Positions 29,086 through 53,960 of a stretch of 60,160 nucleotides of DNA are shown here, piece by piece. The notes beneath the pieces were generated by a model. It ran no database searches. It was given only the letters and a program-made list of their open reading frames with translations, and was not told the origin of the DNA. How positions within the stretch are numbered: the first letter of the stretch is position 1; each line of letters starts with the position of its first letter. This DNA is from Spirochaetales bacterium (lineage in GTDB: Bacteria; Spirochaetota; Spirochaetia; JAIPGG01), in assembly GCA_021736255.1 (NCBI GenBank), contig JAIPGG010000006.1, positions 1-60,160 on the forward strand, read 5' to 3'. Made by a program: the position numbers and the translations under genes.

Positions 29086-30531
29086 ATGAATACCTATATT
29101 GCAGTCGACCTCGGAGCTTCCAACGGCCGGATTATCGCGGGGAACCTTTCTTCAATGGAGGTCTTGCGGCGATTTCCCACATACTCTGTAAAAATACATG
29201 GCTCCTATTACTGGGACCTGCAGGCCATTTTCCGCGAGATTCTCGAGGGATTGAAAGAGGCATTTCGTCGTTATGGTGGAAACGGACCGGAGTCGAGGGT
29301 GATCAGCGGCATAGGTATCGATACGTGGGGAGTCGATTATGTACTCACCGATAAAAATGGGGAACTGATCGGACTTCCCTACCATTATCGCGATTCTCGC
29401 ACCGACAACGCCATGGAAGAGGTTTTCAGCATTTTACCGGCAGATACAATTTATCGGGAAACCGGTATCCAGTTCATGCAGATCAATACCCTCTTCCAGC
29501 TCTACAGCTTCAAACGAGATCATCCGGAGCTCTTCTCCGCCGCCCGTTTTTATCTCTCTATTCCTGATTTATTGAATTACTGGTTAACCGGTATAATGAA
29601 AAACGAATATTCCCATGCCACCACAACCCAGCTCTTCAATCCCTCCATCGGTTCCTGGTCCGGCACGATACTCGCTGCCCTCGATTTTCCCCGGGAAATG
29701 TTCGGCTCTATTGTACCCTCAGGAACGAAAATCGGAGACCTCGATTCTGGTGTTGCCGCCGAGGTCGGTGCCGGCTACTCGGTACCCGTCTTTGCTGTCG
29801 GATGCCACGACACGGCATCAGCAGTGGCGGCAGTTCCCGCTGAGGAGGAAAAGGAATTTATCTATATCAGTTCAGGTACCTGGTCTCTGCTCGGTATCGA
29901 AACACCCCGTCCCATTATAAACGACGACAGTTACCGCTTTAACTTCACCAACGAGGGATCGGTAACCGGAGGAATACGCTTTCTGAAAAACATCATGGGG
30001 ATGTGGATCTTTCAGGAGTGCAAAAAGGAATGGGACACCGCCGACGGCACAGAGAACGATTATGGGGATCTTGTTGAAAAAGCTCGCAGACAGGGTGAAT
30101 CAAAATGCACGATTGATCCAGCGGACAACAGATTTCTCAAACCCGGAGAACCGGACGACCCCATGACCGGCCGAATCCGGGCTTACTGTAGAGAACACTG
30201 CGGCTGCGAACCCGAAACCAGAGCCGAATTGATGATGAGCATCTTCCAGGGTCTTGCCGAGGCCTATCGAAATACCATCGAAAGCGTGGAGACGATTACC
30301 GGCACCAGGTTTCAGGATGTTCACATCATCGGGGGAGGAAGCAAGAACAAGCTGCTTTCTCAGCTCGCCGCCGACAAAACCGGCCGGCGGGTCGTTACCG
30401 GGCCGGTAGAGGCTACGGCCCTCGGAAACATCATGGTCCAGGCTATCGCCGCAGGCGAGATAGACTCTGTCTCCGCCGGAAGAAGACAGATCATGCAGTC
30501 GGAGGAGATCCTCGAGTTTCAGCCTCGTTAG
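29086..30531 (+). CDS. Rhamnulokinase/L-fuculokinase (FGGY)
   Basis: DLGASNGR, GIDTWGVDY, HDTASAV, SSGTWSL, TNEG, LKNIMGMW, GPVEATALGN. Confidence 0.92.
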   Translation: MNTYIAVDLGASNGRIIAGNLSSMEVLRRFPTYSVKIHGSYYWDLQAIFREILEGLKEAFRRYGGNGPESRVISGIGIDTWGVDYVLTDKNGELIGLPYHYRDSRTDNAMEEVFSILPADTIYRETGIQFMQINTLFQLYSFKRDHPELFSAARFYLSIPDLLNYWLTGIMKNEYSHATTTQLFNPSIGSWSGTILAALDFPREMFGSIVPSGTKIGDLDSGVAAEVGAGYSVPVFAVGCHDTASAVAAVPAEEEKEFIYISSGTWSLLGIETPRPIINDDSYRFNFTNEGSVTGGIRFLKNIMGMWIFQECKKEWDTADGTENDYGDLVEKARRQGESKCTIDPADNRFLKPGEPDDPMTGRIRAYCREHCGCEPETRAELMMSIFQGLAEAYRNTIESVETITGTRFQDVHIIGGGSKNKLLSQLAADKTGRRVVTGPVEATALGNIMVQAIAAGEIDSVSAGRRQIMQSEEILEFQPR

Positions 30532-32218
30532 GGCTTTCCGGCCCCTCGTTTTCCCGGTACCGGCTGGGGGTCATTCCGCTGTATTTTCTGAACTGAACAT
30601 AGAAGTAATCCGGATTATCGTACCCTACCCGCCGGCCGATTTCACCTGCCGACAGGTTCCTCTGTTGGAGAAGACGTTTTGCCTGCTCCATTCGAAGCGA
30701 AAGCAGATACTCGTTGAACTTCTTCCCGGTATAGCTGTGAAATTGCTTACCGAGATAGGGAGCGGATAACTGAAATCGGTCTGCGAGAGTCTTTAATGAC
30801 AGAGGACTCGCGTAATTCCTGCGGACAAACCCCACGATGCGCTCGATGGACGATACATTTCTGCTTCGGACTTGTTCGAGATGATCAACCACCTGGAGAG
30901 CGGTTTCCTGCATCCACTCCATGGTATCTTCGAGGGTTTTTTGGCGGAAAAGGCCGCGGAACAGGCTCTCGTAACCTCCGAGAATATGATCGACAGGAAG
31001 CCCGTTGATGCGAATTACCGCCAGCAGGTTCGACAAGACCTCCACGGAAAAGCCCCGGAAATAATCGAGGGAGACCACCCGGGTATGCAGAAATTGACCG
31101 TAGGTCTGTTCGAAAAATCCGATCACCTCCTCCCGGCGGCCTTCATTGACGATCTGAAAGAAATACTCCAGGTCGACCGAACGCAGTTCGTTTTCTTTCT
31201 GCAGGAAATCATCGACATCGTGAATCGTGATGATGTATTTCGGCAGATACCGGATCGGTTCGACTTCAAAACCGGAAAACCAGTCCGCCGCCGTTTTGCA
31301 AGCGAGTGCCCCGTCCATAATCGGCGATTGATATGTTACCGCGTGGAGTGTTCCGGCCTTTATAAACTCCAGGCCCACCTTGGTGCTGCCGTTGGCAACC
31401 CGCACGATATCCTCCCGTCCTGCTTTTCGGACTGCCTCGTTGATACCTATCTGCGGGAGCTGATCATCCGCACTCACGATCCCCCTCAAACGCCGGCCGT
31501 GCTTTTTGATCCATCCGCTTACGACTTCCTCTGTCTGATCACGATCGAAACCGGTATAATCCATTTCCAGCAGCTCCATGGCGGGGGCAATCTTCTTGAG
31601 TTCGGTTATTACCGACCAAGTACGGGCATAGTATGCGGAGGTGCCGGGTTTGTGTTGAATGATCCCGTATCCGCCCTGATTATCGAGAAAACCTGCGAAG
31701 GTGCGGGACAAGAGGCGGAACTGCCCCCAATCATCGGGGCCCGTCCAGGAGAGAATGTACTGAAAGCCCTCGGAGCTCGGCATGAGATTGCTTGCCATCA
31801 CCGGAATGCCGGCCTGGTTTATCCGACAGTACCAGTCGGTCCCCGACTCCGTATCTTCCGGAGACAGAAGAATCAGATCGGGACGTCGGCGGATTGCCTC
31901 CTGTACCTGTTCCTCCTGAATACCAGGCCGCCATCCCGCCGAACGGAACTCCACCTGAAAACCGGAGGCTGGAGCAGCATCCAAAAAGCCCCGCTGATAT
32001 CCCCGCAGATAGGGATGTTCACCGGGGAGAAGGACAATGATGTGCTTCCCTGAAGGTCCGCCGGATGGAGGTTCGGGAATATTTTTTTTCCGCACATCCC
32101 ATCCGGCAAACTCGGCATCATACCAGGCCCGTTCATCATCCGGGGGGTAGTTGTGCGGATTTCCGGGCCTCGGAGGTATCTCTTTATTTTGATAGTCCCA
32201 CAAGATCGGGCTTTGCAT
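30491..32218 (-). CDS. AraC-family regulator with an N-terminal sugar-binding (PBP type I) domain
   Basis: C-terminal double HTH (LSLKTLA..SAPYLG; VGYDNPDYF..FRK..GMTPSRYR). The N-domain is paralogous to the adjacent binding protein. No signal peptide. Confidence 0.9.
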   Translation of the reverse strand: MQSPILWDYQNKEIPPRPGNPHNYPPDDERAWYDAEFAGWDVRKKNIPEPPSGGPSGKHIIVLLPGEHPYLRGYQRGFLDAAPASGFQVEFRSAGWRPGIQEEQVQEAIRRRPDLILLSPEDTESGTDWYCRINQAGIPVMASNLMPSSEGFQYILSWTGPDDWGQFRLLSRTFAGFLDNQGGYGIIQHKPGTSAYYARTWSVITELKKIAPAMELLEMDYTGFDRDQTEEVVSGWIKKHGRRLRGIVSADDQLPQIGINEAVRKAGREDIVRVANGSTKVGLEFIKAGTLHAVTYQSPIMDGALACKTAADWFSGFEVEPIRYLPKYIITIHDVDDFLQKENELRSVDLEYFFQIVNEGRREEVIGFFEQTYGQFLHTRVVSLDYFRGFSVEVLSNLLAVIRINGLPVDHILGGYESLFRGLFRQKTLEDTMEWMQETALQVVDHLEQVRSRNVSSIERIVGFVRRNYASPLSLKTLADRFQLSAPYLGKQFHSYTGKKFNEYLLSLRMEQAKRLLQQRNLSAGEIGRRVGYDNPDYFYVQFRKYSGMTPSRYRENEGPESPNEAETRGSPPTA

Positions 32219-32233
32219 CGGCAACAGTATATC

Positions 32234-32266: not shown

Positions 32267-32293
32267 GTTGTGTCGTGTGCGTTCTCTATGTTC

Positions 32294-33496
32294 TTACCAC
32301 TGAGCGGGCATGAACTCTTCTACGTTCTCTGCAGTGATAACCTTCTTCGGCAGATAACGGACCGGTTCGATCTCTTCACCGTTGAACCAGTCTGCGGCGG
32401 TCTTCACCGCGATGGCGCCGTCGGCTTCTGCTGACTGATAGGTAATGGCGTGCAGATCACCTGCCTTTACGGCATCCATACCAACCTTGCTGTTACCTGC
32501 GGCAACAACCACGATGTCCTCGCGGCCGGCCTTCTGCAAAGCTTCCTGGATTCCGATAGCCTGGGCGGAATCGTCGGCCGCACAGATACCCTTCAGATCA
32601 TCGCCGAAACGGGTGATCCAGTCGGATACGACCTGCATGGTCTTTTCTGCCTCGAAACCGGGAGCCTGATAATCCAGGGTCTCGATGTCGGGTGCATATT
32701 CGGAGAGTTCGGACATGGGGCCCCAGCAACGGGCAAAATAAGGGGATCCGCCGGGGGCATGCTGTACATAGGCAACACCAATGTCCTCGCCTTCGAAGTT
32801 ACTCTTCATCTCGTCGGCCCATTCACGGGCGAGCATGCGGAACTGACCCCAGTCGTCGGGACCGGTCCAGGCGATACAATACTTCATGCCTTCGTCTTCG
32901 GGAAGCATATTACTGACGATGATGGGAATACCGGCCTGGTTTACTTTCCGGATCTGCTGTACGGCAACCTTGGCATCGAGGGGAACGAGGACAATCATAT
33001 CCGGTTCGTCTACGATTGCTTCATCGAGCATCTGGTTCTGAACCGCTACATCCCAGTTCGGAGAAAGGATGGTGGCGTCCATCTGGTAGGCGCCGGCAAC
33101 TTTCTGTACACCATTTCCGAAGGCGGTAAGGTATGGATGATCACCATTGATGATTACAACCACTTCCTTCCCTCTGGCACCATCTGCAGGGGATTCGGGA
33201 ATATTCACCTTCTCCGCACTCCATCCTGCATACTCCATGTCGTACCAATGCATCGGATCGGTTTCAGGCAGAGATTCAGGATCCTCGGGGCGCTCGGGGA
33301 TTTCCTTTTGCTCCATTTCCAGGAGAAGCGGCTGACCGTCACGGGACTTGATCTTGGTCACGTCGACCTGCTTCGACCATTCTAAATTTTCCGAACCTCC
33401 GCTTTCAGCTGCAGGCTCGGCACTTTCCTGTTGACCACCGGCAAAAGCAAAACCGGCAATCGACAGCACCAGGAGAAGAACGAACAGTTTCTTCAT
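32294..33496 (-). CDS. Sugar ABC substrate-binding protein (RbsB-like fold, with an N-terminal extension)
   Basis: Signal MKKLFVLLLVLSIAGFAFAGGQQE; AGIPII, AADD.A.G, ITYQSA. Confidence 0.92.
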   Translation of the reverse strand: MKKLFVLLLVLSIAGFAFAGGQQESAEPAAESGGSENLEWSKQVDVTKIKSRDGQPLLLEMEQKEIPERPEDPESLPETDPMHWYDMEYAGWSAEKVNIPESPADGARGKEVVVIINGDHPYLTAFGNGVQKVAGAYQMDATILSPNWDVAVQNQMLDEAIVDEPDMIVLVPLDAKVAVQQIRKVNQAGIPIIVSNMLPEDEGMKYCIAWTGPDDWGQFRMLAREWADEMKSNFEGEDIGVAYVQHAPGGSPYFARCWGPMSELSEYAPDIETLDYQAPGFEAEKTMQVVSDWITRFGDDLKGICAADDSAQAIGIQEALQKAGREDIVVVAAGNSKVGMDAVKAGDLHAITYQSAEADGAIAVKTAADWFNGEEIEPVRYLPKKVITAENVEEFMPAQW

Positions 33497-33583: not shown

Positions 33584-34636
33584 TCAGGTTTTCCGGCCAT
33601 CTTCCAATTCTTTGAGCAATTCAGCGCGTTGCCCCTTTAGTTGTTCGTGTTTATAAATATAATATGCTTCATATAAAACAACACCTGCAAGTATCATTCC
33701 GCTCGCAAATATCTTGAACTCCGTTCCTACATTGAAACGGTTCATTCCATTGAAAAGCGTTTCGAGCATAAGCACTGCTATCATTGTTTTGAACACGCTG
33801 CCTTTTCCGCCCATCATCGAGGTTCCTCCGATAATGGTCGCAGCTACAACAATCAACAGCGAGTTCACACCCAGATCAACCGGCGAAGAGCTCATCTCGA
33901 TAGCAACCATCGACCCTCCGAGGGCTGCAAAGAAACCGGCAAAAACAAAGGCCAATATGGTATAGGTATCCGCCTTCAATCCGGCAAGCCAGGCAGTATC
34001 GCGGTTTCCTCCGACCATGTAGAAGTTCCGCCCGAACCGTGTCCTCTTTAAGAGAACCTCCATCCCGACCACACTGAGTATGGCGATCAAAATACGCGGA
34101 GTAAGCAGACGGATCGAATCCAAGAAGGGCATCCGCATAAAGTCGGACAAAGCGAAATCCGCCGGTGTGGTAGCACTCAGGGAAACGTCGGTGTACATGT
34201 AGATTACACCCTGTACGATAATCATCATTCCCAGCGTTACGATAAACGAGTGTATCTTCGCTTTCGCCACCAGCAAACCGTTGATCAGTCCGATCAGAGA
34301 ACCGGCGGCAAGTGCAATTACAACTCCCAGCGTCCATGCCATTCCCGGAGGGAGCTCGGAGAACATGAGGCGGAATCCGATGGTGAACACTGCTCCCAAA
34401 GAGAGCGTGGATCCAACCGAAAGGTCGAGCTGGTGAATAATCAGAACAAGGGTGAACCCGATCGCTACGGTAGCGTTCAGGCTCATGCTGCGAAGAATGT
34501 TGGTAAAGTTCCTGAGCCCCACAAAGTTCGGGGCAAAAATCGACATAACGAGAAATACACCGAGGAAGATGATATATATTCTGTTTCTGTCGATCCAGTA
34601 AACAGCATTCTGTTTCGAGTCGAGTTTAGGCATCAT
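33584..34636 (-). CDS. Sugar ABC permease (RbsC-like)
   Basis: LDLSVGS, FIVTLG, TRFGR..GGN, IIGGTS..GGKG. Confidence 0.95.
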   Translation of the reverse strand: MMPKLDSKQNAVYWIDRNRIYIIFLGVFLVMSIFAPNFVGLRNFTNILRSMSLNATVAIGFTLVLIIHQLDLSVGSTLSLGAVFTIGFRLMFSELPPGMAWTLGVVIALAAGSLIGLINGLLVAKAKIHSFIVTLGMMIIVQGVIYMYTDVSLSATTPADFALSDFMRMPFLDSIRLLTPRILIAILSVVGMEVLLKRTRFGRNFYMVGGNRDTAWLAGLKADTYTILAFVFAGFFAALGGSMVAIEMSSSPVDLGVNSLLIVVAATIIGGTSMMGGKGSVFKTMIAVLMLETLFNGMNRFNVGTEFKIFASGMILAGVVLYEAYYIYKHEQLKGQRAELLKELEDGRKT

Positions 34637-35714
34637 CCCTCCCGAGCTTTCTTAGACTGCGTGCGTTGATATAAACGACGGTTATAAAAACGATCCCCTG
34701 AACAACTGTCTGGGAGAAGGTATCAATACCCATAAGCGTCATTATATTCCGCATTAAACCAATTACAAATACGCCTCCGAGGACTCCTATTATATCGCCC
34801 CGGCCCCCGTTGAGCGTCATTCCACCGATAACAACGGCCGTCACAGCATTAAAGTCATACCCTTCGCCGTTGTAGTACGCACCGACCTTTCCGAGCGAGG
34901 TAATGAAGATACCCGTCAGGGCGGCAGTGAGGGAAGAGATCAAAAAGGCCGTACCGACTACCCGGCTTGCCTTGATTCCGCTGAGCCGGGCCACATCATA
35001 AGAGGACCCGGTTACCTTCAACTGCTGTCCGAACTTTGTTCGCTTCAAAAGGAACTGTGCGGCAATTACCAGTGCAATGAGAATAATAACGGTGATAGAG
35101 ATGCTGCCGAAGATGCGGATCCGGTACAGATTGATAAAGGCATCCGCCAGATGCTCGTTTCCGATGCCGGCCTTGATGTCGGGGTAGATCTGTTTGTTGA
35201 GCCAGACCCAGCGTACCACTCCCTTGGTGACATAGGCCATAGCCAAGGTCCAGATAATCGGGTTTGCCCGAAGTTTACCGACGGCAAAGGCATTAACAAG
35301 TCCCACACCTACACCTACCAGCAAACCGGTAAAGATACTCATGAACATTCCCAGAGGAATGAGTTCGATGGCGATATAACCGGAGAGGGCCATGGTTGTC
35401 GGAATAGAGAGATCGGCAAAGTGGCCCGAATAGGTTACGAAGGCTACACCGACTGCCGCCATCCCGAGCAGCGTTACTGCATCGAGAATATTGAGAAAGT
35501 TTTTTGAATTAAAAAAACTCCCGCCGAAAAGAATAATCCCTACGAGAATAAACAGGATAGCTACAACGTAAACACCGAATCTGTTGATCCAGAGGTTCAA
35601 ACCGGATTGCTTTAACTCCCGGGAAACAGGCGGGGCCGCTGCAGCATTTCCCTGCCCCGGCGGTGAGTTTTGCTGTGCGGGCTGCTGTTGGTTCAGATCA
35701 TCCGGCATTGACAT
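34626..35714 (-). CDS. Sugar ABC permease (RbsC-like)
   Basis: DLS, TKFG, AVVIGG..GGRG; multiple TM segments. Confidence 0.93.
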   Translation of the reverse strand: MSMPDDLNQQQPAQQNSPPGQGNAAAAPPVSRELKQSGLNLWINRFGVYVVAILFILVGIILFGGSFFNSKNFLNILDAVTLLGMAAVGVAFVTYSGHFADLSIPTTMALSGYIAIELIPLGMFMSIFTGLLVGVGVGLVNAFAVGKLRANPIIWTLAMAYVTKGVVRWVWLNKQIYPDIKAGIGNEHLADAFINLYRIRIFGSISITVIILIALVIAAQFLLKRTKFGQQLKVTGSSYDVARLSGIKASRVVGTAFLISSLTAALTGIFITSLGKVGAYYNGEGYDFNAVTAVVIGGMTLNGGRGDIIGVLGGVFVIGLMRNIMTLMGIDTFSQTVVQGIVFITVVYINARSLRKLGRDDA

Positions 35715-37221
35715 ACCTCCCTTCTCCGTTAGCCGCTAACAGGACTGTTTCTTCAGTGGCTTCCCCTCCGGGAATCTCGCCGATCATGTGTCCCTTCCTC
35801 ATCATGACGATTCTGTCCGATATTCCCACGAGCTCGGGAAGATCCGAGGAAACAACAATTACGGCATTGCCTTGGTCGGCCAGTTTTTCTATGGCTTTGT
35901 GAATAGTAACCTTTGCTCCTACATCGACTCCCCGGGTAGGCTCATCGAGAAACAATACGTTAGGCTCTATGGCAAGCCACTTAGCCAAAAGGACCTTCTG
36001 CTGATTTCCACCGGAAAGGTTGCTCATCGTTCGCCCCGGATCGGGAGGATAAATATTCAACTCATTGATAAGAGATTTCATCTTTCCCGCTCCGCGTTTA
36101 CTCGAAAAGACAAAATTCTTTACCAGGCGGGGAATTAAGGCGGAGAGAATATTTTCTCCGACGGTCAGGCGAAGAGCGAGTCCGAAAAGCTTTCTATCTT
36201 CGGTGAGATAGCCCACGTCTTTTTCGAGGGCCTCCGTCATATTCTTGATCCGGATCTGTTTCCCGTCCAGAAAGATTTCTCCCTCATCGATCGCGTCGAC
36301 CCCCGTAATTGCCCGGGCCAGCTCGGTCCGGCCGGCACCTGCAAGGCCGCCTATACCGAGAACCTCGCCTTCGTGAGCGGAGAAGGAAACATTGTGGAAA
36401 AACCCGTATCGGGAAAGATTTTCAACCCGCAGCTTTTCCTTTCCGGGGGTACGTACCCGCTTACTGAACATTTCCTCCATCTTTCTGCCGACCATCATCT
36501 CCACCAGCTCCGAGGTGGTTACATCGCTTACCTTTCGGGTGTCGATGCGTTTTCCGTCCCGCATAACCGTTACCCGGTCGGCAACCTCGAAGACCTCCGG
36601 AAGATGGTGAGATATATAGATAATTGCCAGCCCCTCGTCCCTGAGCTTGTGAATGATACCGAAAAGCAGAGCTACCTCATCCCGGGAAAGAGCAGAGGTA
36701 GGCTCGTCCATAACCAGGATACTGGGCGCATTTCCCAGGGCTTTTGCAATCTCGACCAATTGAGCCTGGTGCTGACTGATTTCTTCTATCTCCAAAAGCG
36801 GATCGAGATCTCCGAGTCCTACTCGCTCGAGAAGTTGTTTGGATTCTTCCACCATCCGTTTTTTATCGAGGAAACCCTTTTTCCGCGGCAAACGGCCTAC
36901 CAGGAGGTTTTCCGCGATGCTGATCGGCAGAGCCTGGGTGAGCTCCTGGTAAATCATTTCGATCCCCTCATCCTTTGCAATGGAGGGTGAATGGAGTTTT
37001 ACCTGCTGTCCACCGATGAAAATTTGTCCGGTATAATCGTTAAAAGATCCGGCAAGCATCTTCATGAGAGTAGATTTTCCGGCACCGTTCTCGCCGACCA
37101 GTGCATGAACCTCACCGGCCTGGACGTCGAAACTTACGGTATCGACTGCTATGGTCCCGGGAAACTGCTTGCTGACGTCCTTCATTTCTATGGCCTTCCC
37201 CAACTGTTCAGCTTCACTCAC
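35698..37221 (-). CDS. Sugar ABC ATPase (RbsA/MglA-like, two domains)
   Basis: GENGAGKST, MDEPTS, LSGGNQQK, DEPTRGVDVGAK. Confidence 0.97.
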   Translation of the reverse strand: MSEAEQLGKAIEMKDVSKQFPGTIAVDTVSFDVQAGEVHALVGENGAGKSTLMKMLAGSFNDYTGQIFIGGQQVKLHSPSIAKDEGIEMIYQELTQALPISIAENLLVGRLPRKKGFLDKKRMVEESKQLLERVGLGDLDPLLEIEEISQHQAQLVEIAKALGNAPSILVMDEPTSALSRDEVALLFGIIHKLRDEGLAIIYISHHLPEVFEVADRVTVMRDGKRIDTRKVSDVTTSELVEMMVGRKMEEMFSKRVRTPGKEKLRVENLSRYGFFHNVSFSAHEGEVLGIGGLAGAGRTELARAITGVDAIDEGEIFLDGKQIRIKNMTEALEKDVGYLTEDRKLFGLALRLTVGENILSALIPRLVKNFVFSSKRGAGKMKSLINELNIYPPDPGRTMSNLSGGNQQKVLLAKWLAIEPNVLFLDEPTRGVDVGAKVTIHKAIEKLADQGNAVIVVSSDLPELVGISDRIVMMRKGHMIGEIPGGEATEETVLLAANGEGRYVNAG

Positions 37222-37576: not shown

Positions 37577-37598
37577 CGAATAGGGGATGAAACGAGCA

Positions 37599-44410: not shown

Positions 44411-44732
44411 GGTGGAAGACCTCCTCCATCTCGGCCCACCATTCCCCTTCCTTGCGGGTATCGAGGGGCTTTTGCATGGGCATCATAATGTCCCACCATT
44501 CCTGGGTCTTGGGATGGTCGGCCATCTTCTGCATATCCGCTTCGAAATCATCTCCTACGTATTCCATAAAAGCAAAGAGCATGTTGTCCTTGTGGAAAAT
44601 CGTGTAGTTACGGATATTACACTCCTTAATCTTGTCAGCCACCTCCGGCCAAATATTGTTGTGGTAGCGGACATATTCATCATATTTGTCAGGATCGAGC
44701 CCGATAATCTGTCCGTGTCGTTTTACTGCCAT
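44403..44732 (-). CDS. L-rhamnose/L-fucose mutarotase (RhaM/DUF718 family)
   Basis: EYVRYHNNIWPEV, IRNYTIF, QEWW..M, W..MEEVFHLD. AGGAGG RBS before ATG 44732. Confidence 0.92.
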   Translation of the reverse strand: MAVKRHGQIIGLDPDKYDEYVRYHNNIWPEVADKIKECNIRNYTIFHKDNMLFAFMEYVGDDFEADMQKMADHPKTQEWWDIMMPMQKPLDTRKEGEWWAEMEEVFHLD

Positions 44733-44881
44733 GCCGTCCTCCTTTATCATATTTTAGCAATATTTTACCACGGACACCAAGACAGTCAAGGTTTTTTCGA
44801 ATAATCTCCTATATTCAGCGGTTTTTTCTTGTATTTTTGGTTAATTATGATAAAGTAATGGTTAAATATGGAGCGGATGAG

Positions 44882-47075: not shown

Positions 47076-49385
47076 ATGATTATGGATTCAAAGAAAACCA
47101 ATAGAGAAACCATCGGGGCCCAGGCAGTACCGGGAATCTCCCCGAACAGCCGAGTGCAGGCACTGATCGACCGCAGAGACAAACTCGCCCGGGAACATAA
47201 GCGTGATTTGTACGTAGACAATCCCGAATTCCTTGTCTATCACTGGTCAGGGGAAGCCGAAGCCTTCAGTCCCGCCACCGGCGAACATGCCGCAGCCGAG
47301 GACAAACGCATCAACCTCGGGGATCACAACTGCCGTGTGGACATCGGCATTCCCTTTCCCTACACAGAGGAGATGCCCTCCAAAAAGAACGGCCACAGCA
47401 ACGATCCCGAAAACTTCGGCGCCGACTACGCCTTTTTTATGGATCACAGTCCGGCGGAGATCCATCCCCACGAACAGATTGTCGGAGAGTTTCACTGGCA
47501 GCTCGACGAGGCCCGCCGATTCCGCTACCCCGAAAAGCAGCGGGAACTCGGCCGGCAGGCCAGGCAGTTGGGAGCCGGGGGTATCAGCTTCAACCACACC
47601 ACCCCGGATTTGAGTATCGGCCTCTCTCTGGGATGGAAAGGCCTCCTGGAAAAAATTCGCAGCAATCGTTCCAAATACGAAGAATACGGAAACCAGCAGA
47701 GCGTTCAATACCTAAACGGGGCTGAACAGGTCGCCCTTTCCATATCCCGGTTTATCGCCCGGCATGCAGAACGAGCCGAAGAGCTTTCTGCAGCCGAAAG
47801 TGACCCCGAACTCAAAGAGAATTACCGGCAGGTTGCCCAAACATGCCGGGCCATCAGCCAGGATGCACCGAAAACCCTTCAGCAGGCTGTGCAGTGGATC
47901 CAGTTTTACCTCCTTGCCGACCGGATAATAGGCCACGGCAACGGATACGGCAGGCTCGATCAACTGCTCATCGACTTCTACCGAAACGATCTCGAAGAGG
48001 GAAGGATCACTCGTGAACAGGCCCGCGACTACATTGCAGAGCTCTACCTCAAATACGGGGGAAACTACTTCTCCTTCGGAGGCAGAAACCGGGAACTCGA
48101 GGATGCTACCAACGAGCTGAGCTGGATCGGCCTCGAGGCATACGATATGACCGGCGGCTACAACCACCTCGGAGTCATGTGGCACCCGGATATGGACCCG
48201 GACTTTTTCGAATATGCCTGCGACGTTGTGGGACGGCACGGAGCGGGAACTCCCACTCTGGTAAACTACGACGTTATGCGCTACAGCCAGCTCCGCTCGG
48301 GTGTAAGCGAGGACGATGCCTGGAATATCTCCTACAGCGGATGCCAGTGGTACTGCACGGTAGGCAACGAGTACAACGACCAGGACCTCAATTCCCTCGT
48401 TCTCGTCCAGCCGATGCAGCGGGCCATGAAGCGTGCAGCTGGCGAAGGCAGCAAAACCTTCGACGATTTCTGGCAGATCTACGATCAGGAGGTCCAAAAG
48501 ACCGCCGACATCCTGCGGGATTTCAAGAACAAGACCTACGAATGGCAAGCCCGGATATGGCCGGAGATCGTTACTTCTTTCTGCATGCACGGTCCCATGG
48601 ATAAGGGAAAGGACGTCACCGACACCCGGGCAGTAAACAACAACTACACCTCGGTCAACGTGTTGGGTGTTCCCAATGTCTCCGATTCGATGTATGCCAT
48701 CAAGAAACTTGTGTACGAGGAGGGCCTCTGCAGCATGTCCGAACTCCTCGAGGCAGTCGAGAATGACTGGGAAGGGCGAGAACCCCTTCGCCGGCGGTTT
48801 TTGAACCTGCCCAAGTTCGGCAACGACATCGATGAACCGGATACCATGGGCATCAGGGTATCCGAACACATCCGGGAAACCCTCGAGAGCCGCCGCAACA
48901 TAAAGGGATTCCATTTCCGCCCCTCGCTCTTCCAGTACATGGGGCACACCTATGCCGGTCCAATGCTGGGGGCCACCCCCGACGGGAGAAAGGCCGCCGA
49001 ACCCCTCGCCCACGGCATGAATCCAATGCACGGACGCAACACGGAGGGAATAGTAGCAACCGCCAACTCATTTACCAAACTCGACTTTCGCAAATACCAG
49101 GGCGGCTCGTTTCAGATCGAGCTCGAGCCCTCCTTTTTTCAGCGGGACGAGAGGCGCGGTCCTGTGGTAGCTATGTTCGCCAAATCGTTCTTCGAAAAGG
49201 GCGGTGTGCAAATCAACCTGAACGTCATCGACATAGATACCCTCAAGGATGCAATGGCCAATCCGGAAAAGGATGAATATCAGGACATCGTAGTCAAAGT
49301 AACCGGGTACTCGGCACACTTTGTTGTCATGGACCGGCAATTCCAGAGCGAGTTCATTCAGCGGGTCAATTACGAGGACCTCTAG
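47076..49385 (+). CDS. Glycyl radical enzyme (PFL-like superfamily), atypical active site
   Basis: GRLDQ, PKFGND, ATPDGR, QINLNV; Cys loop SGCQW (Cys423) and Gly loop VKVTGYS (Gly744). Confidence 0.92.
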   Translation: MIMDSKKTNRETIGAQAVPGISPNSRVQALIDRRDKLAREHKRDLYVDNPEFLVYHWSGEAEAFSPATGEHAAAEDKRINLGDHNCRVDIGIPFPYTEEMPSKKNGHSNDPENFGADYAFFMDHSPAEIHPHEQIVGEFHWQLDEARRFRYPEKQRELGRQARQLGAGGISFNHTTPDLSIGLSLGWKGLLEKIRSNRSKYEEYGNQQSVQYLNGAEQVALSISRFIARHAERAEELSAAESDPELKENYRQVAQTCRAISQDAPKTLQQAVQWIQFYLLADRIIGHGNGYGRLDQLLIDFYRNDLEEGRITREQARDYIAELYLKYGGNYFSFGGRNRELEDATNELSWIGLEAYDMTGGYNHLGVMWHPDMDPDFFEYACDVVGRHGAGTPTLVNYDVMRYSQLRSGVSEDDAWNISYSGCQWYCTVGNEYNDQDLNSLVLVQPMQRAMKRAAGEGSKTFDDFWQIYDQEVQKTADILRDFKNKTYEWQARIWPEIVTSFCMHGPMDKGKDVTDTRAVNNNYTSVNVLGVPNVSDSMYAIKKLVYEEGLCSMSELLEAVENDWEGREPLRRRFLNLPKFGNDIDEPDTMGIRVSEHIRETLESRRNIKGFHFRPSLFQYMGHTYAGPMLGATPDGRKAAEPLAHGMNPMHGRNTEGIVATANSFTKLDFRKYQGGSFQIELEPSFFQRDERRGPVVAMFAKSFFEKGGVQINLNVIDIDTLKDAMANPEKDEYQDIVVKVTGYSAHFVVMDRQFQSEFIQRVNYEDL

Positions 49386-49399
49386 GCCGTGCTGTGAAC

Positions 49400-50356
49400 A
49401 TGAAGGCACGTATTTTCGACATCCACCGGCTCTCCACCCACGACGGCCCCGGCTTCCGGACGGCCGTCTTTTTTAAAGGCTGCAGTCTGCGCTGCCGGTG
49501 GTGCCACAACCCCGAGAGTTTCAACCCCGGTCCGGAGGTGTGGTGGTATTCAAACAAATGTATCGGCTGCCTCGATTGTGTTCGCTCCTGCCCGGAAGAC
49601 GCCCTCAGTGCTGAAGAGGAGGGAATCCGCATTGACCGGAATAAATGCACAGGCTGCGGAATCTGCGCCTCGGTCTGCCCCTCCGGCGCCATGCGTATGG
49701 TCGGAAACGAATGGAAACTAGACGACTTGATCGAACTCATAGAAAAGGACAGGCAATACTTCGACAATTCCGGCGGAGGTATCACCCTCTCCGGAGGAGA
49801 ACCGCTTCTGCAAAGCGGCTTCAGTCTTTCCCTGCTCGATGCAGCGGCCGCAAGGGGTATCTCCACTGCCGTCGACACCTGCGGAGCAGTACCTCCCGAA
49901 ACCATCGAGCAGAGCCTGCCCCTCACCGACTATCTTTTCTATGACCTCAAACTCATAGACCCGGAGGAACACCGCAGCTTCACCGGAGCGGGAAACGACA
50001 GGATCCTCGAAAACCTCCGCTTTGCAGCCGACTATGCACGAAACAACCGGAAGCCGGAAATCTGGGTCAGGACCCCCCTCATCCCCGGCGCTACTGCAGG
50101 AGAGGAAAACCTTCAGGCCGTCGGCGACTATCTTGCCGATATCGGATCTGATGTCATTTCCCGCTGGGAATTGCCGGCCTTCAACCGGCTCGCCTCGGAC
50201 AAATATTCCCGCCTCGGCAGGGAATGGGAATATGCCGATACCCCGATACTCACCGATTCCGAGGCCGAAAATCTGGTAAATGCTGCGAAAAGCTCACGAT
50301 TTCCCGATAAGCTGATCGTTCTGACTGGAATTACCGACTCAAATGCGTCAAAATAG
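49400..50356 (+). CDS. Glycyl-radical enzyme activating protein with a 2x[4Fe-4S] insert
   Basis: HDGPGFRT.VFFKGCSLRCRWCHNPES, CIGCLDCVRSCP, CTGCGICASVCP, GGITLSGGEP. Confidence 0.95.
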   Translation: MKARIFDIHRLSTHDGPGFRTAVFFKGCSLRCRWCHNPESFNPGPEVWWYSNKCIGCLDCVRSCPEDALSAEEEGIRIDRNKCTGCGICASVCPSGAMRMVGNEWKLDDLIELIEKDRQYFDNSGGGITLSGGEPLLQSGFSLSLLDAAAARGISTAVDTCGAVPPETIEQSLPLTDYLFYDLKLIDPEEHRSFTGAGNDRILENLRFAADYARNNRKPEIWVRTPLIPGATAGEENLQAVGDYLADIGSDVISRWELPAFNRLASDKYSRLGREWEYADTPILTDSEAENLVNAAKSSRFPDKLIVLTGITDSNASK

Positions 50357-50364
50357 ATACAGAT

Positions 50365-50991
50365 ATGTATATTTCATACAGAAAGAACCAGACCGGCCAT
50401 GCGATCGACTTCATCTCCCATGTGCTTCGGGCAGGGTATTATCTGGAGGAGCTCTACCGTCCCGGCAGCCTTACCGGCAAGGGAAAGACCATGGACAGAT
50501 GCAACGAAGCGATTCTCGAAGCCAAAAAACTCGATCCCCCTGCCGAAACCGAACAGTTCTACAGTTTCTTGCTCGCGGGCTTTCAGGCGATTCTTCTGAC
50601 CCTTCTCGATGAACCCAAAATGGCCAAACAGGCCATTCGCGTTTTCCCCCAGCGGCATTTCAAATCCCATGAACTCGGCCGGCCGTCTTTACGACCCGTG
50701 CTGTATCATATTCCCAAAATCATGGGGCTCGCCTTGGAACATGAAAACGAGGCCTTTTTTCAGTTTCTGTGCCGAACCTGTCTGGTAATCGAACCCATGT
50801 CGTTTCTCGAGAACAAGATCGATATGACCCTAACCGACCTGATTCGCAGCAGAAAATCCCCCGAGTTCACGGCAGGATGGCAGTTCCTCCTGCATCATGC
50901 CGAAGGCCTTGCCCCGGAGTTTCCTGTATTTCGGGAATATGTTCAGGGACTACGCAGTTCCGAGTCCGACCTTTTGTGCCTGACGGTGTAA
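50365..50991 (+). CDS. Hypothetical protein in the GRE operon
   Basis: 208-aa ORF 8 nt after the activase, on the same strand, with no competing annotated gene. Confidence 0.7.
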   Translation: MYISYRKNQTGHAIDFISHVLRAGYYLEELYRPGSLTGKGKTMDRCNEAILEAKKLDPPAETEQFYSFLLAGFQAILLTLLDEPKMAKQAIRVFPQRHFKSHELGRPSLRPVLYHIPKIMGLALEHENEAFFQFLCRTCLVIEPMSFLENKIDMTLTDLIRSRKSPEFTAGWQFLLHHAEGLAPEFPVFREYVQGLRSSESDLLCLTV

Positions 50992-51015
50992 AATAATGAA
51001 GAGAGGTTATTTCTC

Positions 51016-51453
51016 ATGGACTTTTCCTACCCGGTTGCAGAACGCGCAGTAAAGCGCTGGAAAAGCGAACGGCTCGAAGAAATCGAACCGCAGCATTTTC
51101 TCTTCCATTACCAGGGAAGCACCTGCAGCAACGGCGGAGTACCCTTTATCGCCGATTTTCACGTGATTGTCGATAAAAGCCCAACACTTCGGATTCAAAG
51201 CGCATGGATCGAGATGCCGGAAGAAGAGGAAGAAAACTGGCGGGAAATGTGCTCATTCCAGAGCCGGGGCGAGAAGTTTCTCCGGGAGATTACGAAAGAA
51301 GCAGCCTTCGCCGGGAAAACGGTCGAAGAGGTTCTCAACAACCCTGGAGAAATCAATTATGCCGGGTGCCTCTGCTTTCCCGCCATGGTCAATCAGAAGT
51401 GGCAAATGGTTCTTTCCACCGTCCATTATGCCTGCGCCGTCAGTGGAGCATAA
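51016..51453 (+). CDS. Small Cys-rich hypothetical protein (possible Fe-S accessory subunit)
   Basis: 145 aa, GAGG RBS; GSTCSNGG, EMCSF, AGCLCF. Confidence 0.75.
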   Translation: MDFSYPVAERAVKRWKSERLEEIEPQHFLFHYQGSTCSNGGVPFIADFHVIVDKSPTLRIQSAWIEMPEEEEENWREMCSFQSRGEKFLREITKEAAFAGKTVEEVLNNPGEINYAGCLCFPAMVNQKWQMVLSTVHYACAVSGA

Positions 51454-52615
51454 CCTGCCCGCCGGTCACCGGCACTGCCTGACCGGTTTCGTAGACCTGA
51501 TCAACGACATATTCGAGGGCCTTATAGACATCCGGACCGGTACACCCGCGCTTCATCGGGACCTTTTGTTCATAAAAATGCTTTACATCCTCTATTGATT
51601 TTGCCCCCGGGACTTTACCGGCCCGCAGGTACTGGACAAACAGCCCCCGCTCAGGGTCCGACCAGAGGGGCCCCTCGAAAAAGTTACCCGGACAGATGGA
51701 ATTGACCTTGATGTTGTCGCTTATCAGTTCGAGTGCAAAACTCTGAGTCAAACCGATCCCGCCGAACTTCCCGCCGGCATAGGCTCCGTTTTTATTGGAC
51801 CCGGAAAGACCGGACTTGGAATTGATTTGGATAATATCGCTGAACATCGGACCGCTGCCCGCTGCCTCGGCAGCCTTGTTCTGCAGGGCCATTACCGGGG
51901 AAACATGCTTCGTACCGAGAAAATAGCCGAAATAGTTTACCCGCGACACGAACTCGAAATCGGAATACTTCAGTTCTTTTACGCTTCCCGCTTTGAGGAC
52001 CCCGGCGTTGCTCAGATACAGATCCACCCCGCCGGTTCGCTTCACCACCTCTTCCGCCATAGCCGCCACAGATTCTTCTTTGGAAACATCGACCTGCAGA
52101 GCATAGGCGGCCTTCTGTGAACCCCTTCCGGTGTACTGCTCGTTGATACTCTGTGCCATCTTTTCGGCGCCCTCGAGATTGAGATCGACGATTACCACAA
52201 CAGCACCACGAGCGGCAAGCTGCTGTACCAGAGAGGCCCCGAAACCCTGGGCCCCGCCGGTTACCACCGCAGCCTTCCCGGCCACCGGCGAATTGATTGA
52301 AACACCTTCCGGATAATAAACCCGATACTGTCCCACTCCTTCGACTTCGATCCGTACCGGTCCGGAAGCAGAGGCTTCCTCTCCCTTTTCGGGAACAACC
52401 TCGGCTCCGCCTGCAGCTTTCCACGCCGCGGTCAATTCCTCGACGAGCTTGTCTTCGTCCAATTCCGAGAACCCGCGGTCTTTGATCTTTAGAACGGCTT
52501 CCCCTGAATCGGGTGCTGTATCATCCTCTTCGGAAACCATTTGGACCAGGGGAGCGGTCTTTCCGTTATACATCAATCCCCGCAGAAGGGGGGCTGCCTT
52601 ATGCTGTACATCCAT
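51440..52615 (-). CDS. SDR oxidoreductase, sorbitol-6-phosphate dehydrogenase (SrlD)-like, with an extra N-terminal segment
   Basis: TGGAQGFG, NAG, IIQINSKSG..GS..N..YAGGKFGG.GLTQS.ALEL, TGQ...VTGGQVM. Confidence 0.88.
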   Translation of the reverse strand: MDVQHKAAPLLRGLMYNGKTAPLVQMVSEEDDTAPDSGEAVLKIKDRGFSELDEDKLVEELTAAWKAAGGAEVVPEKGEEASASGPVRIEVEGVGQYRVYYPEGVSINSPVAGKAAVVTGGAQGFGASLVQQLAARGAVVVIVDLNLEGAEKMAQSINEQYTGRGSQKAAYALQVDVSKEESVAAMAEEVVKRTGGVDLYLSNAGVLKAGSVKELKYSDFEFVSRVNYFGYFLGTKHVSPVMALQNKAAEAAGSGPMFSDIIQINSKSGLSGSNKNGAYAGGKFGGIGLTQSFALELISDNIKVNSICPGNFFEGPLWSDPERGLFVQYLRAGKVPGAKSIEDVKHFYEQKVPMKRGCTGPDVYKALEYVVDQVYETGQAVPVTGGQVMLH

Positions 52616-52637
52616 TTCTTTCTCTCCTTATTTCAGG

Positions 52638-53960
52638 TCATGCGAAATCTGCGAGCCGGCGAATTGCTTCGGGATCGCGCCGGTCGTGCTGCCTTCCTAT
52701 ATCGGCATAGCGTTCCATTCTCTCCGCGAGATCCAGGCCGGACAAGGGATTGTCGGGGTGAAAAAGGCCGAGTTCCGCTGAACAGTTCGTCAGTTTTTCG
52801 TGGGCAATCAGCGCCCAGGTAGCATCGATTAAATGGGAAAACTCAGGCTGTTCGAGCTCCCTGCAGTGAAAGGACTGGCGGGAGGTGTTGATATCGACAC
52901 CGCTTATCTCCATGAGCTCATTCTCCCGGGCAAGCCGCATAATCCGTTTCAGCTGCTGCATAGTATTGCGCGGCGGCATGTAGGTTACCGCCTGAAAACC
53001 GAGGCGCTTCACCTCCGGTATCAGAGAATCCAGAAACTCATCCTCGAATTTTTGTGCTTTCTTGTCCCCGGTCGGCGATTCACCGACATCGCCCAGGTAG
53101 GCATACGCAGGTATTGCTCCTGTTTTCTGCGCCAGGGCGACTGCATCCTTTACCGAAACGCATTCGTTCTCGTCGGGCTGAACGTAGAACCTAGGGGTGT
53201 ACTCTGATTTCAATACACCGAGCAGATCGTAAAGATAATGCGGGTTATGTTCATCTTCAAGAAACTCTTTTATCCGCTGAGGCAGATTAATCCCCATCTT
53301 CTCGGCAAGAAGCCGAACCACACCAGGCCCCCTGCCTTCGGAGGCGAGGATCCGGTGAACAAGGGCAAAAAGCAAATGCCGTTCGGTTATACTTCCTCCT
53401 TCATCGGCAGAGGAGAGCGGGACGACATCAGCTGCAAAATCCAGTTTTCCGATTCCGAAGTTTCCGATCATATCGTTCAAGGCCTCGAGCATTCGGCGGT
53501 TCCGCTGATTTCGGGCCTCATGGATAGGTTCGAGAAAACGTCCTACCACCGGAAAAGCAGCGGCAGGCACTCCGTGTATAACAATATATGCAATATTTTG
53601 AGAATCGGGGCTGTTCAGCCGCAATCCCTCGAGTCCGGTCCCGCTCATGTTAACCCGGAGTTCGAATCCCACGGTAGATCCTATAGACAGGGCCCTGGCA
53701 GCCTCGATCATCTCCATTCCGCCGGCTATGGAATCATGATCGACAATACCGACGGCCTGCAGCCCGGCCTTCCAAGCCTCGAAAGCCGCGGCGGTAGGGG
53801 TATACGGGCTGAAGGAATAGCTTGTATGAACATGGTTGTTTACTTCTATTGTAGGTGTTATATCCGGCTGATTTCGGTCGCGATAATCCGCTAATTCACG
53901 GTGTATTTGAAAGCGTCGTTTACTGCTTTCATGATTGACAGGGGGGATGGGTGTTTCCAT
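52638..53960 (-). CDS. PHP-domain metallophosphoesterase
   Basis: NNHVHT..S, GIVDHD, G.E, SGVD. ATG 53960 follows GGAG. Confidence 0.8.
   Translation of the reverse strand: METPIPPVNHESSKRRFQIHRELADYRDRNQPDITPTIEVNNHVHTSYSFSPYTPTAAAFEAWKAGLQAVGIVDHDSIAGGMEMIEAARALSIGSTVGFELRVNMSGTGLEGLRLNSPDSQNIAYIVIHGVPAAAFPVVGRFLEPIHEARNQRNRRMLEALNDMIGNFGIGKLDFAADVVPLSSADEGGSITERHLLFALVHRILASEGRGPGVVRLLAEKMGINLPQRIKEFLEDEHNPHYLYDLLGVLKSEYTPRFYVQPDENECVSVKDAVALAQKTGAIPAYAYLGDVGESPTGDKKAQKFEDEFLDSLIPEVKRLGFQAVTYMPPRNTMQQLKRIMRLARENELMEISGVDINTSRQSFHCRELEQPEFSHLIDATWALIAHEKLTNCSAELGLFHPDNPLSGLDLAERMERYADIGRQHDRRDPEAIRRLADFA

Follow-up and report, generated by a model that had tools for sequence, protein, structure and literature searches.

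Which sugar is served by a locus that sets L-fucose genes beside a glycyl radical enzyme (GRE) and three orphan URO-D-like proteins, and what would these enzymes do to it? The locus lies in a 60,160-nucleotide stretch of DNA from a Spirochaetales bacterium (GenBank assembly GCA_021736255.1, contig JAIPGG010000006.1; the whole stretch is called the window below), which is one complete contig of a metagenome-assembled genome (MAG) of 2.66 Mb in 133 contigs that is 82% complete; lake water is the label of the sequencing runs containing it. A first-pass annotation of positions 29086 to 53960 had proposed a pathway for a decorated deoxy-sugar. Scans with Pfam and NCBIfam profiles, by which gene identities were assigned, recovered every gene that it had listed, and the absences that it had claimed also held, with no FucA/RhaD aldolase, propanediol dehydratase or microcompartment gene in the window. 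From these genes and their neighbourhoods in other genomes, we favor, with a probability of about 50%, a fucose super-locus of separable modules, whose GRE would cleave a C-O bond of a fucose-type sugar (2-O-methylfucose being one possibility) by radical chemistry, in analogy with characterized GREs.

The GRE gene (47076-49385, plus strand) encodes a PFL-like barrel followed by a C-terminal glycine radical domain (PF02901, 300 bits; PF01228, 73 bits). The PFL-like match begins at residue 173 and is preceded by an extra conserved N-terminal region of about 170 residues. In NCBIfam the protein stays under every equivalog cut-off: the best named equivalog is NF007437 (formate C-acetyltransferase; 244 bits versus a cut-off of 1109), the best eliminase model is HypD (234 versus 1100), the subfamily model PFL2-3 gives 311 versus 678, and HypD, CutC, HpsG, and other named GRE models lie at 150 to 245 bits versus cut-offs of at least 1000. 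A search of a 5.8-billion-protein collection returned 577 proteins with E values of 0.001 or lower among 8000 scored candidates; in the best 120, which include the stretch's own cluster, the other 119 are 61 to 69% identical to the GRE over 96 to 100% of its length and carry, where named at all, generic or contradictory source names (“pyruvate formate lyase family,” “formate C-acetyltransferase,” “choline trimethylamine-lyase”). A one-genome-per-species scan located the family in 77 loci of other genomes, cited here by our locus numbers (L), at 58 to 71% identity across at least eight phyla, the phylum labels being read from record titles. Of 78 open reading frames (ORFs) of the family, 76 have the Cys loop SGCQW[YF]C, the two exceptions being without this region, and 73 keep the radical glycine motif KVTGYS; the stretch's own Cys loop reads SGCQWYC. 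By sequence, the GRE can be placed in an unnamed, large, and tightly conserved family within the known GRE superfamily.

The catalytic residues set this family apart. Cys423 aligns with the catalytic Cys433 of glycerol dehydratase, and His174 and Asp437, both invariant in the family, are the equivalents of His164 and Asp447, whereas the position of Glu435 is occupied by an invariant Trp (G-C-Q-W versus G-C-V-E). The C-x-E motif of 1,2-eliminases and isomerases (glycerol dehydratase, propanediol dehydratase, HypD, CutC, IslA, YbiW, PflD, and HplG) is missing from the whole family. In the available part of a June 2026 review (PMC13450708), all six described GRE C-O eliminases and all three isomerases keep C-x-E, with the Glu hydrogen-bonded to the substrate; the same part leaves whole GRE clades unassigned and gives no enzyme acting on fucose or a methyl ether. 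The earlier description of the GRE as atypical is thus borne out, both by its scores below the equivalog cut-offs and by C-Q-W in place of C-x-E. Our literature search, with subscription journals and supplements outside its reach, turned up nothing published about this GRE family, nor about fucose/rhamnose operons that include URO-D-like genes. The activase, a radical SAM protein with a ferredoxin-like insert (49394-50356, plus strand; TIGR02494, 307 bits versus a cut-off of 174), adjoins the GRE in 71 of the 77 loci, and the MAG holds no second eliminase-type GRE, its sole other GRE being a PFL on contig C56.

By label, the 77 loci are distributed over Bacteroidota (26), Spirochaetota (15), Bacillota (11), Verrucomicrobiota (7), Acidobacteriota (7), Chloroflexota (3), and Bifidobacteriaceae (2), and the remainder include Photobacterium, Desulfobulbaceae, Chlorobiota, Victivallales, and WS1; the closest orthologues of the stretch's GRE, URO-D, and FucI genes come from records titled Spirochaetales or Spirochaetaceae. 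The 119 best-matching clusters of the protein search stem from bacteria of gut, termite, marine, peat, and freshwater origin, and cultured isolates with the GRE include Parabacteroides segnis, Faecalicatena contorta, Diplocloster spp., Carboxylicivirga sediminis, Labilibacter marinus, and Photobacterium sagamiensis. The two records titled Bifidobacteriaceae (L048 and L050) have a GRE-activase-FucP arrangement, with GH29 in addition in L048; the L048 genome of 6.8 Mb is far above expectation for Bifidobacteriaceae, and its bin or label may be wrong.

Among structures in the PDB, glycerol dehydratase (1r8w, E value of 4.7e-62), PflD (8yjo, second best, 1.9e-59), and propanediol dehydratase (5i2a, 7.3e-57) are the best sequence matches. 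The GRE shares with the two dehydratases the PFL-like barrel, the Gly radical domain, and a dedicated activase; however, its identity to glycerol dehydratase is only about 25%, as judged by eye from the alignment rather than computed, and it differs from both in the Trp at the C-x-E Glu position, the N-terminal region of about 170 residues, and the lack of bacterial microcompartment (BMC) genes. For the BMC shell domain PF00936, no match was found in the MAG (82% complete), and none occurs among the annotated neighbor clusters of the GRE loci. Propanediol dehydratase is the classical link of a GRE to fucose, but the GRE described here neighbors sugar permeases and fucosidases instead of aldehyde dehydrogenase and phosphotransacylase genes. 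As to PflD and its relative YbiW, both are 1,5-anhydrohexitol-6-phosphate C-O lyases that cleave the ether C-O bond next to the carbinol carbon, according to the available part of the review (PMC13450708). By analogy, YbiW/PflD is the nearest precedent for cleaving a sugar ether. These two enzymes, in contrast to the GRE family, keep C-x-E and use phosphorylated anhydro-sugars, whereas the family has C-Q-W and adjoins transporters of free monosaccharides, with no kinase consistently adjacent.

What, then, accompanies the GRE elsewhere? For each of the 77 loci, ORFs were called from stop to stop up to 8 kb from the GRE and grouped into single-linkage BLAST clusters, of which representatives were annotated. 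The first-pass annotation would have been in difficulty if homologues of the GRE never occurred with URO-D or sugar genes, which is not so: in several phyla the neighbors include a FucP-family permease (33 of 77 loci; all 31 full-length members match the fucP model TIGR00885), a GH29 alpha-L-fucosidase (29 loci), and a URO-D-like protein (15 loci). A CUT2 ABC ATPase is found in 17 loci, a PhyH-type 2-oxoglutarate (2OG) oxygenase in 9, a sulfatase in 7, RhaM in 6, a RhaT-family permease in 6 (mostly Bacteroidota, with a URO-D-like gene adjoining in 5 of the 6, L024 excepted), a xylose-isomerase-like barrel identified by its fold in 6, and an XylE-like sugar porter and a chemotaxis receptor in 3 each; the usual immediate neighbor is a short AraC regulator. 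At least one fucosidase-type glycoside hydrolase (GH29, GH95, GH139, or GH95-like) is present in 31 of 77 loci; where the sequence extends at least 5 kb upstream and at least 6 kb downstream of the GRE (36 loci), FucP is found in 17, GH29 in 17, and URO-D in 9. Chance was gauged from copy number: five GRE-bearing genomes of 4.6 to 7.3 Mb hold 3, 6, 14, 16, and 22 GH29 matches, from which GH29 would be expected beside the GRE in about 1 to 9% of 19-kb spans, against 38% observed under at least six phylum labels. FucP-type, sugar-porter, and CUT2 ABC transporters all carry monosaccharides, and the GRE substrate or its precursor would therefore be a free monosaccharide.

Two further kinds of neighbor were observed. 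In five of six loci (L030, L032, L044, L045, and L064), the PhyH-type 2OG/Fe(II) oxygenase is followed by a 275-amino-acid (aa) protein without a Pfam match, the pair lying between activase and FucP (L030:14271-15083, L032:14247-15071, and L045:7605-8441), so an oxygen-dependent enzyme is clustered with the oxygen-sensitive GRE. The 275-aa protein has a xylose-isomerase-like barrel fold, with the Art22 isomerase, UlaE, the 3-keto-glucoside epimerase YcjR, DgpBC, and 3-keto-glucoside 1,2-lyases as best matches; in an hhalign comparison, this neighbor cluster had no similarity to the TIM-barrel protein of the MAG's rhamnose operon on contig C14, described below. Three unrelated records (L062:17144-18991, L068:715-2583, and L082:7182-8933) encode a methyl-accepting chemotaxis protein no more than about 7.5 kb away from the GRE, directly upstream of it in L082, which suggests movement towards the same sugar.

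Could that sugar be a methylated fucose? A neighbor cluster with DUF5703_N has 12 members and is mixed, with 5 GH139-type, 3 GH95, and 4 distant GH95-like proteins. The GH139-type proteins lie near the GRE in 5 of 77 loci (L016, L019, L043, L069, and a fragment in L023) and neighbor a URO-D gene in 3 loci; four of the five (L016, L019, L043, and L069) retain both the Gln-Asn pair and the catalytic Glu, and the L043 copy matches PDB entries 9hmb (E value of 2e-134) and 9hyq (2e-105), structures deposited by a 2025 JBC paper on GH139 (PMC12282258). As far as the available part of that paper goes, no family other than GH139 is known to release alpha-1,2-linked 2-O-methyl-L-fucose, the O2-methyl pocket is among the residues kept in 98 to 99% or more of the family, and the fate of the free 2-O-methylfucose is not described. 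The Bacteroides thetaiotaomicron rhamnogalacturonan-II system treated there (PMC12282258) resembles L016, L019, L043, and L069 in having GH139-type genes, here beside the GRE and/or URO-D, but the stretch itself differs from it in encoding neither a GH139 nor any other glycosidase. The rarity of GH139 makes five adjacencies to the GRE a notable hint, without proving the substrate. The O-methyl fucose suggested in the first-pass annotation is thus partly upheld, by GH139 beside the GRE (5 loci) and URO-D (3 loci); on the other side, these loci are a minority, and plain fucose fits FucP.

The three URO-D-like genes of the stretch are UROD_A (40508-41770, minus strand), UROD_B (43127-44410, minus strand), and UROD_C (45940-46992, plus strand), and the MAG has ten PF01208 matches in all, compared with 22 URO-D-like proteins in Blautia hominis. 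The three match only the C-terminal half of PF01208 (profile positions 154 to 346), and neither HemE nor MtaA describes them: TIGR01464 gives 23 to 29 bits versus a cut-off of 303, and TIGR01463 gives 38 to 70 bits versus 235. Their predicted metal site is H-x-C ... H, the His and the downstream His being invariant and the Cys kept in at least 90% of 29 URO-D-like sequences, whereas the zinc site of MtaA is H-x-C ... C. MtaA (4ay7) is the sole PDB sequence match, and the H-x-C portion of its zinc site is kept. In an AlphaFold (AF2) model of UROD_A with a pLDDT of 89, HemE and MtaA are the best folds, with MetE further down and no sugar enzyme among the best; TM scores to HemE and MtaA are 0.55 to 0.71 (query- or target-normalized), at 14 to 18% identity to the structures. 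The URO-D-like proteins branch off divergently within the URO-D/MtaA/MetE barrel superfamily, which they resemble in the TIM-barrel fold of the model and the H-x-C half of the MtaA zinc site and from which they differ in genomic company, namely RhaM, RhaT, FucI, GH29, and GH139 rather than haem or methyl-transfer genes.

This company is found in other genomes as well. UROD_A orthologues are 57 to 70% identical across three phyla. Within the phylum, sampling of 400 other genomes gave 14 with an orthologue, 12 of which belong to a single family, with full-length matches at 63 to 70%. In 13 extended UROD_A loci, from genomes in which no GRE was found, RhaM is adjacent in 10, and FucI is present in 8, a kinase in 3, and a GRE in none. 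One of these strings, L125, runs LacI-RhaM-UROD_A-UROD_B together with an orthologous CUT2 importer, which ties the stretch's ABC importer to the URO-D module. The RhaM-URO-D pair recurs in six GRE loci (L009, L011, L020, L025, L029, and L062), and orthologues (38 to 41%) of the LacI regulator that diverges from UROD_A lie beside RhaM/UROD genes in L011, L020, L025, and L125. UROD_B has orthologues (57 to 61%) in two Bacteroidota isolates, P. segnis, with RhaT, RhaM, and GH29-like genes nearby, and L. marinus, where a separate URO-D-like gene adjoins RhaT and GH29. The MAG itself carries a fourth kind on contig C14 (7066-11927, minus strand), in a rhamnose operon for a xylose-isomerase-like TIM-barrel protein, RhaM, a URO-D-like protein of 363 aa with the metal motif H-S-D in place of H-x-C, RhaA, and a 372-aa class II aldolase, adjoined by a DeoR regulator and a CUT2 ABC importer and with no kinase.

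Some unusual UROD_A relatives were also seen. One type, of 844 aa and with 19 member sequences, combines the URO-D domain in a single protein with an AraC regulator that has a periplasmic-binding sensor domain. A single-contig chimera of 970 aa joins a truncated GH139 to the C-terminal half of a UROD_A orthologue; it is probably an assembly or deletion artefact, yet it places both genes side by side. The UROD_A orthologues of L110 (one TAG) and L113 (two TGA) have in-frame stops in otherwise high-quality genomes, which may reflect sequencing error, pseudogene formation, or recoding.

The classical L-fucose operon, as in Escherichia coli and B. thetaiotaomicron, comprises FucP, FucI, FucK, FucA, FucO, and FucU, and the stretch matches it in part. 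FucI (38639-40447, plus strand) is a full equivalog (NF008220, 1095 bits versus a cut-off of 775) and follows a LacI regulator (37587-38594, plus strand); the FGGY sugar kinase (29086-30531, plus strand; PF00370 and PF02782) is rhamnulokinase-like, a candidate fuculo/rhamnulokinase with 469 bits versus 528 for TIGR02627 and 163 bits versus 471 for the E. coli-type fuculokinase model. This kinase is the only RhaB-like one found in the MAG, and a 36% orthologue lies by FucI and the GRE in L062. A mutarotase is likewise present, class II aldolases are encoded in the genome, and the FucP-family permease is the commonest GRE neighbor in other genomes after the activase. The stretch differs in that the candidate aldolases are unlinked, the mutarotase is RhaM-type, and uptake is by a CUT2 ABC importer, and it adds the GRE, its activase, and three URO-D-like proteins, which have no counterpart in the classical operon. 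In a count over GRE-bearing genomes alone, 21 of 30 have a strong FucI match; the 9 without one include the isolates L. marinus and P. sagamiensis.

The absent aldolase had been taken as an anomaly, and here the earlier view fails. A search of the whole genome for fucA/rhaD, as had been proposed, gave Aldolase_II (PF00596) matches on contigs C126 and C14 only, and in L062 a class II aldolase also adjoins the GRE; with candidate class II aldolases encoded on other contigs, the lack of one in the window is not anomalous. The one on C126 (38395-39678) is a 427-aa protein with two tandem class II domains, 38% and 30% identical to the single-domain aldolase of L062, and two FGGY kinases follow it. 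As for a URO-D-like protein substituting for the aldolase, class II aldolases are encoded elsewhere in five of five UROD_A genomes, and L062 and C14 hold both.

How tightly are these parts joined? In the stretch, the GRE operon reads LacI (44837-45943), UROD_C, GRE, activase, and two orphan ORFs of 208 and 145 aa (50365-50991 and 51016-51453), all on the plus strand, with a 4-base overlap between LacI and UROD_C and then gaps of 83, 8, 8, and 24 bases, and UROD_C is translationally coupled into it. UROD_C orthologues (60 to 64%) lie near the GRE in two spirochaetes (L011 and L014) and one member of the Verrucomicrobiota (L070), a more distant URO-D-like gene does so in L009 (Bacteroidales), and one record each of Prolixibacteraceae and Acidobacteriaceae has a UROD_A orthologue at 2 to 8 kb from the GRE. 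Among other spirochaete records, five (L011, L014, L020, L025, and L062) bring together GRE, activase, UROD genes, RhaM, LacI, ABC importer, and AraC-sensor regulator in reshuffled order, L062 additionally holding the kinase, FucI, and a class II aldolase; FucI orthologues (65%) are near the GRE in L061 and L062, and importer orthologues are beside it in L011, L025, and L062. In the stretch, the importer is encoded on the minus strand by a binding protein (32294-33496; Peripla_BP_4), two BPD_transp_2 permeases (33584-34636 and 34626-35714), and an ABC_tran ATPase (35698-37221), next to an AraC-family regulator (30491-32224, minus strand; Peripla_BP_4 plus HTH_18) whose sensor domain is 47% identical to the binding protein. 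This regulator probably senses the importer's extracellular sugar, as judged from that identity, and its orthologues (35 to 49%) directly flank the GRE in L011, L014, L020, and L025; L020 has three paralogues of it around the GRE.

The modules are linked but separable. The block had been read as one unit, which holds for the GRE, URO-D, RhaM, importer, and regulator genes that recur together elsewhere but not for the SDR, PHP, and two-ORF genes, which are not conserved with the GRE; likewise, a neighborhood survey seeded with GRE and URO-D, as the first-pass annotation had envisaged, places both by fucose genes in other genomes, although each occurs without the other. In the organization that we propose, one module would consist of LacI-FucI and the rhamnulokinase-like kinase and supply the classical isomerase and kinase steps, with the aldolase encoded elsewhere. 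A second would comprise RhaM (44403-44750, minus strand; PF05336, 117.6 bits; 8-base overlap with UROD_B), UROD_A and UROD_B (and UROD_C), the LacI regulator divergent from UROD_A (41907-43007, plus strand; LacI plus Peripla_BP_3), the CUT2 importer, and the AraC-sensor regulator, and a third would be LacI-UROD_C-GRE-activase. Since the URO-D-like genes follow the mutarotase and precede or accompany FucI, the most likely substrate of their products is the free 6-deoxy-sugar, on which they would act between the mutarotase and FucI or RhaA. They would take off or change a substituent and thereby prepare the sugar for FucI, removal being the most economical guess because of the superfamily's alkyl-transfer chemistry.

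For the GRE, radical C-O cleavage is favored because its nearest relatives cleave C-O bonds and two of the three glycerol dehydratase catalytic residues are kept. The enzyme would eliminate the O-substituent of a decorated fucose, e.g., 2-O-methyl-L-fucose, in analogy to the ring-ether cleavage of YbiW/PflD and the dehydration by glycerol dehydratase, and would use a noncanonical acid/base set in which Trp stands at the position of the C-x-E glutamate. Among candidate sugars, 2-O-methylfucose leads on account of GH139, the oxygenase of the same clusters, and the URO-D company, and the PhyH oxygenase may be an aerobic alternative for the GRE's hard step. A more ambitious version, which we consider doubtful, would make the GRE the first radical remover of a sugar methyl ether or O-linked decoration (an anaerobic “2-O-methyl-L-fucose methanol-lyase”), the PhyH enzyme its oxygen-dependent counterpart in facultative bacteria, and the URO-D-like proteins a second kind of sugar O-demethylase, zinc dependent and cobalamin independent, that feeds FucI. 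One variant was rejected on chemical reasoning, namely, conversion of 2-O-methylfucose to L-fuculose and methanol by C2-H abstraction, because the C2 radical of a 2-O-methyl aldose is without a route to a C2 carbonyl and hydrogen return only regenerates or epimerizes the sugar.

Several points weigh against C-O cleavage of a decorated fucose by the GRE. The usual general base, the catalytic Glu of all known eliminases, is absent from the enzyme, and this is a weakness. So is the product: 1,2-elimination of 2-O-methylfucose gives a deoxy-keto or deoxy-lactone sugar, and no conserved downstream enzyme was seen beside the GRE among the annotated neighbors of the 77 loci. GH139 is a neighbor in just 5 of these loci, with GH29 instead in most, and the sulfatases of 7 GRE loci misfit rhamnogalacturonan-II. 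The neighbor counts themselves are rough, being based on ORFs rather than gene calls, on many short contigs, and on related genomes that are not independent. The GRE-linked permease is the only FucP-family match in one verrucomicrobial genome and the best-scoring FucP in P. segnis and in an acidobacterium, and an ordinary FucP-type permease by the GRE fits plain L-fucose as well as a decorated one. The partnership with URO-D is also incomplete, since no URO-D-like match (E value of 1e-10 or lower) was found in the GRE-bearing genomes of Diplocloster modestus and P. sagamiensis (L041 and L082), and among the 400 other genomes of the phylum the GRE (E value of 1e-150 or lower) is found in none and UROD_A in 14. 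For the URO-D-like proteins, finally, neither a corrinoid protein nor another methyl acceptor is evident.

Two alternatives that leave the sugar undecorated are serious. The GRE may act downstream of fucose cleavage, on L-lactaldehyde (e.g., its hydrate, to give propionate) or another C3 product, as a microcompartment-free alternative to lactaldehyde reductase and propanediol dehydratase, the URO-D module being unrelated. The genomic setting lends this some weight, in that the GRE adjoins the genome's main or only FucP-type permease and GH29, suggesting plain fucose import, the MAG has neither BMC genes nor a second eliminase-type GRE, and lactaldehyde reductase exceeds the TIGR02638 cut-off in only 5 of 31 GRE-bearing genomes (a count over GRE-bearing genomes alone); an excreted acid would need no conserved downstream enzyme, and the retained equivalents of His164 and Asp447 would suit a small diol-like substrate. 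Yet in those 5 genomes the GRE stands alongside a bona fide FucO, the C-x-E glutamate of all diol dehydratases is missing, and the neighbors are specific to fucose (FucP, GH29, GH95, and GH139) and not common to rhamnose genes, though rhamnose also yields lactaldehyde. Regulators with extracellular sugar-sensor domains directly adjoin the GRE, and the lactaldehyde reaction is our own proposal, for which the literature search found no paper on such a GRE. We therefore hold this alternative unlikely. Somewhat harder to credit is that the GRE acts on unmodified L-fucose or L-fuculose, opening a radical dehydration or epimerization route parallel to FucI, FucK, and FucA. Its strongest argument is the permease, the commonest neighbor, of which 31 of 31 full-length members match fucP; the 9 of 30 GRE-bearing genomes without a strong FucI match agree with it, and the two invariant loop cysteines (C-Q-W-Y-C) could perform H abstraction and H return from opposite faces. 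Against this, the other 21 genomes do have a canonical FucI, a new route needs further dedicated enzymes, none of which is conserved beside the GRE, and the GH139, PhyH oxygenase, and URO-D neighbors point beyond plain fucose.

The remaining alternatives concern the modules and the URO-D chemistry. That GRE, URO-D, and fucose genes are functionally unrelated and adjacent by accident or shared descent is suggested by the four regulators and several transcription units, by the occurrence of GRE and URO-D without each other, and by the SDR, PHP, and two-ORF genes that do not travel with the GRE. Promoter-like sites are at shuffle level (11 versus 11.4 expected), the scan for promoters and terminators not rising above shuffles. 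Such a mosaic, which the first-pass annotation itself had raised as a caveat, is improbable, however, given that the same families recur by the GRE in several phyla in varying order, that UROD_C is coupled into the GRE operon and lies near the GRE elsewhere too, that GH29 adjacency far exceeds the 1 to 9% expected from copy number, and that the regulator's sensor domain is paralogous to the importer's binding protein, with orthologues flanking the GRE elsewhere. Least probable of all is that the URO-D-like proteins are classical corrinoid-dependent O-demethylase methyltransferases of the MtaA/MtvB type, with corrinoid protein and activator encoded elsewhere. MtaA/CmuA-type models are indeed their best named matches, 4ay7 with its H-x-C is their only PDB sequence match, and MtaA and MetE are among the fold matches, but the scores are 38 to 70 bits versus cut-offs of 235 to 600, and the third zinc ligand position is His, not Cys. 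In the whole-genome search for corrinoid proteins recommended earlier, B12-binding domains (PF02310) were found in the MAG (82% complete), in ORFs of 145 to 1131 aa, but only on contigs C56, C72, C58, and C65 and weakly on C126, none of which carries a URO-D paralogue. No corrinoid protein was found among the annotated neighbors of URO-D orthologues, these being a minority of the flanking ORFs.

If the GRE acts on fucose or methylfucose, as in the C-O cleavage that we favor, it would open a new branch of anaerobic fucose metabolism, a central cross-feeding route in the gut microbiota and in algal and plant glycan turnover. The GRE clade is large and breaks the C-x-E rule, and it now has a testable context of fucose permease, fucosidases, and AraC regulator; the cultured carriers make the hypothesis directly testable. 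For the orphan URO-D-like proteins, which are abundant in genomes of anaerobes, the steady company of RhaM, RhaT, and FucI is a first functional handle. Were the more ambitious version true, a methanol-lyase GRE and URO-D demethylases would define what becomes, in guts, sediments, peat, and lakes, of the methylated fucose that rhamnogalacturonan-II and glycans like it release.

The genes at the right edge of the block appear to be of another kind. Neither Pfam nor NCBIfam has a match for the two ORFs that follow the activase, although their codon usage is gene-like, and tblastn found no match to them in the 77 GRE loci or the rest of the MAG; with no homologue in any of the 77 loci, they were rejected as GRE small subunits. 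Convergent to the GRE operon is a pair on the minus strand, an SrlD-like SDR (51440-52615; best match sorbitol-6-phosphate dehydrogenase, 233 bits versus a cut-off of 307) and a PHP-domain protein (52638-53984; identified by Pfam/NCBIfam). Near the GRE homologues, no counterpart of the PHP protein was found, and the SDR is matched in L039 alone, at 29%; the pair is probably a neighboring unit outside the conserved system. The SDR ORF begins with a 110-residue N-terminal extension that is acidic and of low complexity, has no family match, and has its own ribosome-binding site upstream.

Just upstream of the block (26292-28983), a 352-aa radical-SAM protein overlaps a 577-aa CbiA/ParA-type P-loop ATPase, with a 243-aa MsrA adjoining. 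The left half of the contig (1075-25351) is unrelated and encodes two PAS-rich hybrid histidine kinases and an HD-GYP-type protein, together with three peptidases (U32, S49, and M28) and an oligopeptide ABC importer.

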